DNA from: Escherichia coli
GTDB lineage: Bacteria > Pseudomonadota > Gammaproteobacteria > Enterobacterales > Enterobacteriaceae
Reading direction: 5' to 3' (one strand)
Assembly: GCF_013122565.1 (NCBI RefSeq)
Contig: NZ_CP053258.1
Length of the DNA stretch: 64,000 bases
Position numbers and translations under genes: made by a program. Under the pieces are notes generated by a model, which did no database searches, was not told the DNA's origin, and saw only the letters and a list, made by a program, of their open reading frames with translations. The stretch's first letter is position 1. The number at the start of each line of letters is the position of its first letter. This document shows, one piece after another, positions 5,986 to 9,741 of the stretch.

Positions 5986-6186
5986 ATGGATCATAGTCTT
6001 AATTCTTTAAATAACTTCGATTTCCTGGCGCGTAGTTTTGCCAGAATGCACGCAGAAGGTCGCCCGGTCGATATTCTGGCCGTTACTGGTAACATGGATG
6101 AAGAACATAGAACCTGGTTTTGCGCACGTTATGCCTGGTATTGCCAACAGATGATGCAAACCAGAGAACTTGAATTAGAACACTGA
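5986..6186 (+). CDS. glgS: Glycogen synthesis / surface-composition regulator GlgS (66 aa)
   Basis: Translation [66 protein letters not shown]; long AT-rich upstream region. Confidence 0.9.
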
Positions 6187-6190
6187 TATT

Positions 6191-6213
6191 ACGGGCCGTC
6201 TGGCCCGTTTTTG
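6191..6213. terminator. Terminator hairpin (CGGGCC gtct GGCCCG + T-run) in the convergent glgS/ubiK junction
   Basis: Perfect 6-bp GC stem followed by TTTTT; sits between the stop codons of convergent genes. Confidence 0.6.
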
Positions 6214-6220
6214 TGTTGCT

Positions 6221-6520
6221 TTATTCTGCTTTATCAATAGGCGGGATAGCCGGAGGAGATTGAAGATCTGCTACCGAATTATTGCGCGCTTCCAGTTCAC
6301 TGATGCGTTGCTCCAGTAACGCCAGTTTCTCACGAGTCCGTAACAGGACTTGCGTTTGGACGTCGAACTCTTCACGGCTTACAAGGTCGAGGCGCGTCAG
6401 CTGCGCTTGTAGGGTTTGGCGGATTTTTTTCTCCACATCTTCCCCGAACTCCCTGATTCCTTTAGGCATTGATTCGTGAACCTGGCGAGCGATTTGCTCA
6501 ATTTTTTTCGGGTCAATCAT
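6221..6520 (-). CDS. ubiK: Ubiquinone biosynthesis accessory factor UbiK (YqiC, BMFP family)
   Basis: ORF 6221-6580; start placed at internal Met ([13 protein letters not shown]...) to give ~99 aa; coiled-coil protein. Confidence 0.8.
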
Positions 6521-6606
6521 TGTAGTTTCCCTGTACTGATAGGTGTTGAGTGCCATTGTAGTGCGATAAGGGTAAGTCATAAACCAGAATTATGTGAAGC
6601 TATGCG

Positions 6607-6635
6607 TTGCTGCCGCTAATCATTAGCGTTATAGT
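6607..6635 (+). promoter_or_regulatory. Putative ribB promoter (-35 TTGCTG, 17-bp spacer, -10 TATAGT)
   Basis: Hexamers with canonical spacing just upstream of the riboswitch aptamer. Confidence 0.5.
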
Positions 6636-6644
6636 GAATCCGCT

Positions 6645-6795
6645 TATTCTCAGGGCGGGGCGAAATTCCCCACCGGCGGTAAATCAACTTGGTTGAAAGC
6701 CCGCGAGCGCTTTGAGTGCGAACTCAAAGGACAGCAGATCCGGTGTAATTCCGGGGCCGACGGTTAGAGTCCGGATGGGAGAGAGTAACGATTCT
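6645..6795 (+). promoter_or_regulatory. FMN riboswitch (RFN element) in the ribB leader; boundaries approximate
   Basis: Conserved RFN core: GGGCGGGGCGAAATTCCCCACCGGCGGTAAA...CCGGGGCCGACGGTTAGAGTCCGGATGGGAGAG upstream of ribB. Confidence 0.85.
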
Positions 6796-6893
6796 GTCGG
6801 GCATGGACCCGCTCACGTTATTTTGGCTATATGCCGCCACTCCTAAGACTGCCCTGATTCTGGTAACCATAATTTTAGTGAGGTTTTTTTACC

Positions 6894-7547
6894 ATGAATC
6901 AGACGCTACTTTCCTCTTTTGGTACGCCTTTCGAACGTGTTGAAAATGCACTGGCTGCGCTGCGTGAAGGACGCGGTGTAATGGTGCTTGATGATGAAGA
7001 CCGTGAAAACGAAGGTGATATGATCTTCCCGGCAGAAACCATGACTGTTGAGCAGATGGCGCTGACCATTCGCCACGGTAGCGGTATTGTTTGCCTGTGC
7101 ATTACTGAAGATCGCCGTAAACAACTTGATCTGCCAATGATGGTAGAAAATAACACCAGCGCCTATGGCACCGGTTTTACCGTGACCATTGAAGCGGCTG
7201 AAGGTGTGACTACCGGTGTTTCTGCCGCTGACCGTATTACGACCGTTCGCGCAGCGATTGCCGATGGCGCAAAACCTTCTGATCTGAATCGCCCTGGCCA
7301 CGTTTTCCCACTTCGCGCGCAGGCAGGTGGTGTACTGACGCGTGGCGGTCATACTGAAGCGACTATTGATCTGATGACGCTGGCAGGCTTTAAACCGGCT
7401 GGTGTGCTGTGTGAGCTGACTAATGACGATGGCACGATGGCGCGTGCACCAGAGTGCATTGAGTTTGCCAATAAACACAATATGGCGCTCGTGACTATTG
7501 AAGACCTGGTGGCATACCGTCAGGCACATGAGCGTAAAGCCAGCTGA
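6894..7547 (+). CDS. ribB: 3,4-dihydroxy-2-butanone 4-phosphate synthase
   Basis: 217-aa ORF matching RibB as remembered ([17 protein letters not shown]). Confidence 0.95.
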
Positions 7548-7580
7548 AAACCGCTGCTTAATTTACTGCCTTAATCAAGA

Positions 7581-7614
7581 AACCGAAGTTGTAGCAGGCT
7601 TCGGTTTTTATTTT
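7581..7614 (+). terminator. Intrinsic terminator after ribB
   Basis: Stem AACCGAAG / CTTCGGTT followed by TTTTTATTTT. Confidence 0.7.
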
Positions 7615-7808
7615 GCCCTGCTATGCAAGATGTTAATTCCGCTTCTCTTTCTATGAGAAAATTTCATTAATATCAGGCATTCTTTTTCATTATGATCAAA
7701 ATCATATAATTGTTCCGTTATTATGCGACCATATGAATATATCCGAAAAAGGATATGTGAAATTTATGCGCTAAATGTTTAGTATTGTTAAATATTAAGG
7801 GTAAAAGG

Positions 7809-7979
7809 ATGTTTATCGCCTGGTACTGGATTGTATTGATTGCTCTGGTTGTGGTGGGTTATTTCCTGCATTTGAAACGTTATTGTCGGGCGTTTCGCCA
7901 GGACAGAGACGCACTGCTTGAAGCGCGGAACAAATACTTAAACAGTACGAGAGAAGAGACAGCTGAAAAGGTAGAATAA
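7809..7979 (+). CDS. Small hypothetical membrane protein (~56 aa): one transmembrane helix plus a charged tail
   Basis: ATG with AAGGG ribosome-binding site; translation MFIAWYWIVLIALVVVGYFLHLKRYCRAFRQDRDALLEARNKYLNSTREETAEKVE; AT-rich upstream region. Confidence 0.4.
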   Translation: MFIAWYWIVLIALVVVGYFLHLKRYCRAFRQDRDALLEARNKYLNSTREETAEKVE

Positions 7980-8036
7980 GGCTTTCGTGAAGCTGGCAGA
8001 AGTTGTCCATGCGCTGGACAACTTCTGATGTTGTTT

Positions 8037-8810
8037 TTAACCAATTCCCGCCGTTTGTAGTAGCACTAAACTGAATCCCATCACTGACATTCCACATAGT
8101 ACGCCATAGCTGGGGTTATTATTAGGGTCAATCTCTTTGGCGAGCGGCATTAATTCATCAACCGAGAGCGCCACCATAATTCCTGCAACCGCCGCCATGA
8201 TTGCCGCCATGACCACCGGGGAAATCATGCTACCGAGGATTAACCACGCCAGCACACCACCAAGAATTTCTGCCAATCCAGAAATCCCCGCCCACAGAAT
8301 TGCCGTGCGTTTAGAACCCGTTGCTGCATAAACCGGGCCTGCAACCGCCAGACCTTCAGGAATATTGTGCAACGCGACGGCCAGTGCGATGCCAAATCCC
8401 AGCTCCAGGTTGCTGCTCGCCGTGACAAAGGTGGCAATCCCTTCCGGGAAGTTATGCAGACTGATGCCGAGAGTGAGCAGAATGGCTGTGCGCTTGATCG
8501 ATTTTGGCAACGGCTGCACCGATTTTTGCATTAAATCCTGCGGATGCGCATGTGGCAACATGCGGTCCAGGCCAAAATAGCCAAGCAGACCGAAGATAAA
8601 CATTCCATAACCCAACACAGGCGACATTCCTTCAGCGGCTAGTGCGGCAGGAAGCATTTCCATTAATGAGATGAGCAACATGATCCCCGCCGCAAATCCT
8701 AGCGAAAACGCCAGTAAGCGGTTCGAGGGTTTTTGCCCGAGAACGCCGAGAAACGCGCCAATAAACGTGGCTGCCCCCGCCAGTATGGTCAGAATGAGAG
8801 GTACTGACAT
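8037..8810 (-). CDS. zupT: Zinc transporter ZupT (ZIP family)
   Basis: ORF 8037-8852; start placed at [12 protein letters not shown] (257 aa); ZIP-family HNxPEG motifs. Confidence 0.9.
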
Positions 8811-8925
8811 CGACAACTCCTTATAAATCTTCACCTTCAGGCAGATTGTCAAAATAACTGATGATCATCATCATTGTTATCCGGGTTCTTACTCCGCCGA
8901 ACAAGCGTATTGTGAGGATATCAAA

Positions 8926-9741
8926 ATGACACCTTTAGTTAAGGATATCATCATGTCTTCAACACGTATGCCAGCATTGTTTTTAGGTCACGGTAGTCCG
9001 ATGAACGTGCTGGAAGATAATTTGTATACCCGCAGCTGGCAGAAGTTGGGGATGACATTGCCACGCCCGCAAGCGATTGTGGTGGTTTCGGCTCACTGGT
9101 TTACCCGTGGAACAGGAGTGACCGCGATGGAGACGCCGCCCACGATTCATGACTTTGGTGGCTTCCCGCAGGCGCTGTACGATACGCATTATCCTGCTCC
9201 GGGTTCGCCTGCGCTGGCACAGCGTCTGGTTGAGCTGTTAGCGCCGATCCCGGTGACGCTGGATAAAGAAGCCTGGGGCTTTGACCACGGCTCGTGGGGC
9301 GTGCTGATTAAGATGTATCCTGACGCTGATATCCCGATGGTGCAGTTGAGTATCGACAGTAGCAAACCTGCCGCCTGGCATTTCGAAATGGGGCGCAAAC
9401 TGACAGCGCTGCGAGATGAAGGAATAATGTTGGTCGCCAGCGGTAACGTGGTGCATAACCTGCGCACAGTGAAGTGGCACGGTGATAGTTCACCGTATCC
9501 GTGGGCGACGTCGTTTAATGAGTATGTGAAAGCGAATCTGACGTGGCAAGGGCCAGTGGAACAACATCCTCTGGTGAATTACCTCGACCATGAAGGTGGC
9601 GCGTTATCGAACCCAACGCCAGAGCATTATCTGCCGTTGTTGTATGTGTTAGGTGCGTGGGATGGGCAGGAGCCAATTACCATTCCGGTTGAGGGTATAG
9701 AAATGGGCAGCCTGAGTATGCTGTCGGTGCAGGTAGGTTAA
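8926..9741 (+). CDS. ygiD: Extradiol ring-cleavage dioxygenase class III (4,5-DOPA dioxygenase-like)
   Basis: 271-aa ORF; position between zupT and ygiC; exact start uncertain. Confidence 0.8.
   Translation: MTPLVKDIIMSSTRMPALFLGHGSPMNVLEDNLYTRSWQKLGMTLPRPQAIVVVSAHWFTRGTGVTAMETPPTIHDFGGFPQALYDTHYPAPGSPALAQRLVELLAPIPVTLDKEAWGFDHGSWGVLIKMYPDADIPMVQLSIDSSKPAAWHFEMGRKLTALRDEGIMLVASGNVVHNLRTVKWHGDSSPYPWATSFNEYVKANLTWQGPVEQHPLVNYLDHEGGALSNPTPEHYLPLLYVLGAWDGQEPITIPVEGIEMGSLSMLSVQVG

Follow-up and report, generated by a model that had tools for sequence, protein, structure and literature searches.

A number of small proteins of the inner membrane act by modulating larger membrane proteins, among them the small partners in AcrZ-AcrB, MgtS-MgtA/PitA and MntS-MntP, as well as KdpF and CydX/CydH. 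YqiD of Escherichia coli, encoded between ribB and zupT, is comparable to AcrZ, MgtS, MntS, KdpF and CydX/CydH in its size class, its single predicted transmembrane (TM) helix and its conserved short soluble segment. It differs from them in that it has no sequence similarity to these proteins and in that its gene is convergent with zupT and forms no operon with a candidate partner.

The protein itself has been described. VanOrsdel et al. 2018 (PMC6001520) printed an identical protein sequence and coordinates, and YqiD is one of the 36 small proteins which they detected by immunoblotting after chromosomal SPA tagging in MG1655. A tetracycline ribosome-profiling signal was noted for yqiD in the same work.

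In supplementary tables to Myers et al. 2013 (PMC3688515), an FNR peak is given at U00096.2 3181647; it is described as "end of/5' of zupT/ribB" and was called by all three ChIP-seq peak callers as well as by ChIP-chip. An adjacent sigma-70 peak (3181649) amounts to 395 under aerobic and 1002 under anaerobic conditions, a 2.5-fold difference with an adjusted p of 7e-83. A PWM site, TTGATCATAATGAA, is given at 3181683 and is free of Fis, H-NS and IHF coverage (Table S6). For the 3181647 peak, "Unknown" is entered under downstream operon, under other regulators and under start sites alike. Several genes of the small membrane-protein class (ynhF, yncL, blr and yneM) also lie beside FNR peaks in that study (Table S5). 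Many FNR peaks are without regulatory effect.

The gene between ribB and zupT

The whole stretch of DNA that was analysed, 64,000 nucleotides in length, is referred to as the window. The following features delimit the gene and its surroundings:

6894-7547, + strand: ribB, 5' neighbour of the spacer
7578-7609, + strand: intrinsic terminator of ribB, made up of a hairpin (fold -16 kcal/mol, z = -4.9) and a T-run on its 3' side
7739-7808, + strand: predicted 5' UTR of yqiD, about 70 nt, holding TAAGGG at 7796-7801
7809-7979, + strand: coding sequence of yqiD, 56 aa and a stop codon, from ATG at 7809 to TAA ending at 7979
7997-8037, + strand: intrinsic terminator of yqiD with a 13-bp stem at 7997-8027, from a terminator scan (fold -22.6 kcal/mol, z = -3.9)
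8037-8810, - strand: zupT, ZIP-family divalent metal importer, given as context and arranged tail-to-tail with yqiD

The spacer is bounded by the ends of ribB (7547) and of zupT (8037, - strand), and ygiD (+ strand) is the next gene beyond zupT. In an earlier note on this DNA, the region was described as an AT-rich stretch of about 490 bp. The length is right, as the spacer spans 489 bp (7548-8036), but strong AT-richness is limited to its upstream ~260 bp: GC content is 0.29-0.35 across ~7550-7850 and climbs to 0.42-0.47 across the 3' half of the yqiD ORF.

The 56-codon ORF in this spacer is the known small-protein gene yqiD and is not new. Its product is identical at 56 of 56 residues to YqiD of K-12 MG1655 (b4756, YP_009518818.1), the gene of which is annotated at 3183381-3183551 in NC_000913.3. 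The two spacers differ at three nucleotides, one of them a synonymous site within the ORF. Sequence, position between ribB and zupT and strand relations are all the same, and there is no difference of substance from the K-12 gene. The spacer is present at 95% identity or more in 4,432 of 5,426 complete E. coli genomes, with a median of one place per genome, and among the matches listed the RefSeq label under the spacer match is "yqiD: protein YqiD".

The ORF had been proposed in the earlier note as a real small-protein gene of the kind that annotation misses. Its reality is upheld by the identity with YqiD, by published SPA-tag and ribosome-profiling data and by strong purifying selection (see below). 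It is no longer a missed gene, as yqiD has been annotated since 2018 and is named by RefSeq in most E. coli genomes. Insertion into the membrane and the regulation of a transporter or sensor kinase, also raised in the note, are predictions. Translation, which was to be checked by ribosome profiling or an epitope-tagged fusion, had in fact already been documented by the chromosomal SPA-tag immunoblot and the tetracycline ribosome-profiling signal (VanOrsdel 2018, PMC6001520). The translated sequence also agrees with the one given in the note, and so does the ribosome-binding site, a TAAGGG Shine-Dalgarno sequence located 7 nt from the ATG. A mechanical ORF list offers a 64-aa version starting from TTG 7785; this start is ruled out because one-base indels between the TTG and the ATG break the frame in other species.

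Some sources refer to relatives of YqiD as "DUF4051 domain-containing protein". Scans of Pfam-A, NCBIfam and related collections gave no model at cut-off for YqiD or for its Salmonella or Citrobacter relatives. Matches below threshold are unrelated DUFs driven by the TM helix, and DUF4051 is not among them in the database copy searched. A literature search retrieved no experiment on the function or localisation of E. coli YqiD; other matches to the name yqiD were judged to concern the unrelated B. subtilis yqiD.

Conservation and distribution of YqiD

The length of the ORF is not significant in itself, because the other strand of this DNA also bears ORFs of 94 aa and 54 aa. It is conservation of the frame, together with the ratio of nonsynonymous to synonymous substitutions, that makes the yqiD ORF more than chance. 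All 35 extracted orthologous ORFs are intact and start with ATG, and the sense frame alone is free of stops in 35/35; each of the other five frames is stopped in nearly every orthologue. For codons 1-42, dN is about 0.08-0.13 and dS exceeds 2, giving dN/dS of 0.035-0.059; the comparators were Salmonella, Citrobacter, Intestinirhabdus and a diverged E. coli allele, and synonymous sites are saturated in these comparisons. Codons 43-56 evolve almost freely (dN/dS about 0.6-0.7). The conservation check suggested in the earlier note thus comes out in favour of a gene, with an open frame in every orthologue and a core dN/dS of ~0.04-0.06.

Eighteen residues are invariant: M1, I3, W5, Y6, W7, Y18, H21, K23, R24, C26, A28, R30, D32, R33, D34, A35, L36 and K42. 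They cluster in W5-Y6-W7 and between H21 and L36. Remote homologues retain mainly A-[FYC]-R-[QH]-[DE]-R-[DE]-A.

The YqiD family is tiny and restricted to some of the Enterobacteriaceae. Among 5.8 billion proteins, a word-indexed search retrieved 108 relatives, all of them from Escherichia, Citrobacter, Salmonella or metagenomic contigs, and a profile search run exhaustively over 1.84 billion cluster representatives yielded only 25 proteins at E <= 0.001. When one genome per species was scanned, 30 loci were found, belonging to Escherichia, Citrobacter, Salmonella, Intestinirhabdus, one "Enterobacter sp.", Phytobacter and Kosakonia.

The genomic neighbourhood on the 3' side is fixed. In all 38 loci bearing a relative (tblastn), zupT lies directly 3' on the opposite strand. 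This holds even for homologues at ~37-57% identity, and the tail-to-tail arrangement is also seen at the remote homologue loci L040, L041 and L043. One protein of 125 aa (P0123) has the first ~72 residues of ZupT fused to a YqiD-like C-terminus, even though zupT and yqiD are encoded on opposite strands. Its probable origin is an artefact of assembly or gene calling, or a local inversion.

Protein features and predicted topology

Three segments can be distinguished in the protein:

residues 2-20, N-terminal: TM helix FIAWYWIVLIALVVVGYFL, from hydropathy
residues 21-42: juxtamembrane helix HLKRYCRAFRQDRDALLEARNK, conserved and predicted to be cytoplasmic
residues 43-56: charged tail, variable

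The single TM helix and the basic and acidic tail noticed earlier are both evident, the former with a Kyte-Doolittle mean of 2.43 over residues 2-20 and the latter with nine K/R and seven D/E. AlphaFold2 predicts one continuous helix over residues 2-55 at moderate confidence (mean pLDDT 74).

YqiD is likely to be a signal anchor, with its N-terminus at the periplasmic face (only Met1 outside) and its C-terminal helix in the cytoplasm. This topology is predicted by the positive-inside rule, because the N-terminus has no charged segment and the charges right after the helix are +4/-1. The invariant juxtamembrane helix, H-x-KRYC-x-AFRQDRDALLEAR, would be the working surface of the protein. Short and charged, it would be held against the inner side of the membrane and may there bind and modulate a larger membrane protein, as is known for other small membrane proteins of bacteria. 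A metal-binding site made up of His21 and Cys26 was considered but is not supported, both residues being lost in remote homologues.

Transcription unit and 5' leader

Gene yqiD has its own terminator and probably forms an independent single-gene unit. The ribB terminator ends the ribB unit, and yqiD is therefore not simply transcribed by read-through from ribB. On the 3' side, the T-rich tract of the yqiD terminator reaches the zupT stop codon, and the hairpin is common to convergent zupT.

The upstream sequence is well preserved. Over the 125 bp 5' of the ATG, alignment of 21 genomes gives a mean column identity of 83%, despite saturation of synonymous sites in the gene. The predicted 5' UTR contains an invariant TGTTAA at 7786-7791. 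At the predicted 5' end of the mRNA (7739-7756), a 6-bp hairpin AUAUCC-GAAAAA-GGAUAU is possible; it is 71% paired over the 21 genomes and displays modest covariation, e.g. TACCT/AGGTA in C. amalonaticus. The leader as a whole was also considered as a structured element, riboswitch or thermometer, and this was rejected on a z of -1.2 and on RNAalifold covariation of ~0 with no compensatory pairs.

Two RNA family matches were obtained in the vicinity. The FMN riboswitch at 6642-6790, within the leader of ribB (RF00050, 121 bits), is known, expected and unrelated to yqiD. A match of STnc240 over the ribB terminator (30 bits vs a gathering score of 55) is ascribed to chance, and it was rejected because STnc240 maps to yoeI-yeeY in Salmonella.

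A conserved palindrome and a predicted promoter

Upstream of the predicted 5' UTR, the following elements were identified:

7686-7699: TTCATTATGATCAA, overlapping register with 9/10 FNR consensus positions in K-12-type E. coli; passes the published PWM (ln p = -10.9)
7692-7705, no strand assigned: palindrome ATGATCAAAATCAT, an FNR-type box aTGAT-N4-ATCAt with 8/10 consensus positions
7724-7732, + strand: predicted extended -10 element, from alignment, consisting of TG (7724-7725), one base and GACCAT (7727-7732)

Boxes were scored against the FNR consensus TTGAT-N4-ATCAA. The palindrome, ATGATC(A/G)AAATCAT, is invariant in all 21 aligned sequences of Escherichia, Salmonella, Citrobacter and Intestinirhabdus. 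A matching palindrome occurs at 32 of 35 loci. At 30 of these, the exact 8/10 box is separated from the ATG by 108-111 nt; in two diverged lineages there is a 7/10 variant, ATGATCGG[G/T]GTCAT, at a distance of 62-68 nt. Exact ATGAT-N4-ATCAT occurs twice in the 64-kb window, vs 0.13 matches expected. The register at 7686-7699 overlaps the conserved palindrome by eight bases; its left half is good in K-12-type E. coli only, and it scores 3-7/10 in other genera.

The predicted extended -10 element is characterised by the invariant T39, G40, A46 and T47 and the nearly invariant A43 of the 21-genome alignment, which are equivalent to -15T, -14G, -8A, -7T and -11A, respectively. Its hexamer, GACCAT, is poor in K-12-type strains. 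The distance from the box centre to -7T, counted by hand, is 33.5 nt both in the main group and in the Enterobacter kpr-6/ENA lineage, in which the sequence between box and -10 is GC-rich and unrelated. A simple promoter scan takes the left arm of the palindrome, TATGAT, for a -10 hexamer.

The box is not present throughout the family. Homologues of Phytobacter and Kosakonia (L037-L041) are without an FNR-like box, so that control by FNR does not extend to the family as a whole. These loci share another conserved element, CTACTTATAAAGTGGTA, about 60-95 nt 5' of the yqiD homologue. Judging from the upstream sequences, this branch may be regulated differently.

Two further upstream motifs were observed. 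A second palindrome, ATGATCATCATCAT (ATGATC-N3-ATCAT), is located at 8861-8874 in the divergent promoter region of zupT and ygiD, in a context, CTGATGATC(T/A)TCATCATGGTTATC, that is conserved across nearly all genera examined. The list of Myers 2013 has no FNR peak at this palindrome, which could be a shared operator of another factor or just promoter sequence. A CRP-like motif, GTGTGATCTTATCGACA, is found ~170-190 nt 5' of yqiD in Salmonella, several Citrobacter and Intestinirhabdus (L004, L020, L027 and L030). It is absent from the window, where the ribB terminator abuts instead.

Proposed assignment of the orphan FNR site to yqiD

Coordinates of U00096.2 are converted to those of NC_000913.3 by a shift of +1978, which was checked via the PWM site. 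On this basis the FNR summit falls at ~7735 of the window, and the PWM site of Myers et al. (3181683) is the register at 7686-7699. Expression of yqiD could not be tested by these authors, because the gene was unannotated in 2013. We infer that yqiD is the target of this orphan FNR site and that it is induced anaerobically by FNR.

Transcription from the predicted extended -10 promoter would begin near 7739-7740. The FNR-type box would then take the place of the -35 region, centred ~40.5-41.5 bp before this predicted start, i.e. in the class II position, and activation by FNR from this position would induce yqiD in the absence of oxygen. The yqiD promoter is similar to class II FNR promoters in its TGAT-N4-ATCA core, in the predicted 40.5-41.5 centre, in FNR occupancy in vivo and in the anaerobic rise of sigma-70. 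It differs from them in that the box has A and T at its outermost positions, where FNR prefers T and A, and its geometry is a predicted one. The C-R-A-A spacer is conserved in this register as well. Conservation of the outer positions and of the spacer hints at an additional or different constraint, e.g. another factor or the embedded GATC.

Taken together, we consider it fairly probable that yqiD is a single-gene unit for an inner-membrane protein, that it is activated by FNR in class II manner and that its juxtamembrane helix modulates a larger membrane protein.

Other regulators were also considered. ArcA control was rejected since the GTTAA/TGTTA repeats of the leader are spaced by 10 rather than 11 on inspection, and ArcA ChIP supplements have no entry at the yqiD locus. 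Putative PhoP, Fur and Zur boxes were dismissed by eye, their spacing being at odds with the consensus. There are independent signs that yqiD is regulated. Natural upstream variants alter its expression, and GWAS, a promoter model and a GFP reporter agree on this; a yqiD promoter fusion spanning ~7609-7840 is described in bioRxiv 10.1101/2025.06.10.658842. In EAEC 042, a "DUF4051 family" gene, orf3334, is among three genes up-regulated in a mutant of the regulator Aar (aar). This gene is probably yqiD, because there is a single locus per E. coli genome and every E. coli relative resembles a yqiD allele.

Alternative explanations

Conservation of the region might reflect a non-coding function, such as a small RNA, a 3' element of zupT or an antisense regulator, with the ORF being incidental. 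The convergent arrangement with zupT, the terminator hairpin in common and the conserved upstream leader would suit such a function, yet substitutions in codons 1-42 are overwhelmingly synonymous with dS saturated, the frame is free of stops and frameshifts in 35 genomes while the other five are closed in nearly all, and neither structural covariation nor an Rfam family match was found. As the protein has moreover been detected experimentally (VanOrsdel 2018, PMC6001520), the probability of this explanation is close to negligible. The ORF could alternatively encode a hydrophobic peptide akin to the type I toxins Ibs, Ldr, Hok, TisB and ShoB, with a small RNA that is antisense to it or overlaps it keeping it silent. 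Similar size, a hydrophobic N-terminal helix, the AT-rich spacer and the conserved 5' UTR would correspond to such a toxin. Type I toxins are mostly hydrophobic, unlike YqiD, half of which is a conserved, highly charged helix. The gene is present in single copy per genome at a position that is stable and syntenic across genera, no Rfam antitoxin-type RNA family is matched in 6000-9000 even at E <= 1, and no conserved antisense frame or structure accompanies it. Tagged YqiD is also detectable during ordinary growth in rich medium (VanOrsdel 2018, PMC6001520). We regard a toxin as very improbable.

A more substantial objection accepts yqiD as genuine and concerns its control: the palindrome might serve another regulator as its operator, or simply belong to the core promoter, and the FNR ChIP signal would be incidental and of no regulatory consequence. 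The conserved register agrees with the FNR consensus at only 8/10 positions, its spacer is invariant too, and the similar palindrome at 8861-8874, with no FNR peak listed, could point to a different factor shared by both sites. Myers 2013 (PMC3688515) assigned no regulated operon to the peak. On the other hand, FNR occupancy is reported by three ChIP-seq callers and ChIP-chip, sigma-70 increases 2.5-fold anaerobically, and box and -10 stay the class II distance apart even in a lineage with wholly different sequence between them. As to a core promoter, it is suggested by the scan that reads TATGAT as a -10 hexamer, but the -35 hexamer paired with it sits in sequence that is unrelated between lineages. 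We thus take a non-FNR role of the palindrome to be possible but rather unlikely, and prefer class II activation of yqiD by FNR.

Two haplotypes and variable upstream neighbours

About 991 of the 5,426 complete E. coli genomes (e.g. ST131 ZH193) carry a deeply diverged allele of yqiD with 69% protein identity, for which the RefSeq name is "hypothetical protein". Its core dS from the K-12-type allele is ~2, a distance equal to that of Salmonella. The diverged block comprises the promoter, gene and terminator of yqiD only (window ~7690-8064; L003 8997-9350), and identity returns to 92-100% inside zupT in these genomes. Recombinant alleles occur; in P0013, an N-terminus of the diverged type is joined to a C-terminus of the K-12 type.

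The region just 5' of the yqiD promoter is a hot-spot of insertions, with the breakpoint at ~7610-7690 of the window. In K-12-type E. coli and in Citrobacter there is no insertion and the 5' neighbour is ribB itself. The neighbour in Salmonella is an assT-dsbL-dsbI cluster (L004 413-3601), and in B2-type E. coli it is a chaperone-usher fimbrial operon (L003 3569-8541), which ~991 E. coli genomes (e.g. ST131 ZH193) carry at this position. A related operon of K-12, ygiL-yqiG, is located on the far side of ubiK-ribB. Homology among these upstream arrangements starts ~120 bp 5' of the ATG, and the promoter must therefore lie inside that stretch.

ZupT as a candidate partner and implications

If YqiD modulates a larger membrane protein, ZupT would be the first candidate partner, solely on the strength of invariant adjacency. 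An FNR-induced, membrane-anchored modulator of ZupT might tune Fe(II)/Zn(II) uptake on loss of oxygen, comparably to MntS-MntP and MgtS-MgtA. Were this true, the two diverged yqiD haplotypes of E. coli would reflect selection on ZupT control. We nevertheless judge this specific partnership improbable, because the arrangement is convergent and not operonic, the clade is narrow and zupT is reported to be constitutive. Vertical inheritance within this small clade may by itself account for the adjacency of yqiD and zupT.

YqiD belongs to the numerous E. coli small proteins that have been validated but have no known function. What is added here are figures for purifying selection on the gene and a plausible assignment of an orphan FNR site to it. 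The link to this site would make anaerobiosis a condition under which to seek the role of YqiD, and its pairing with zupT would provide a first candidate for a partner.
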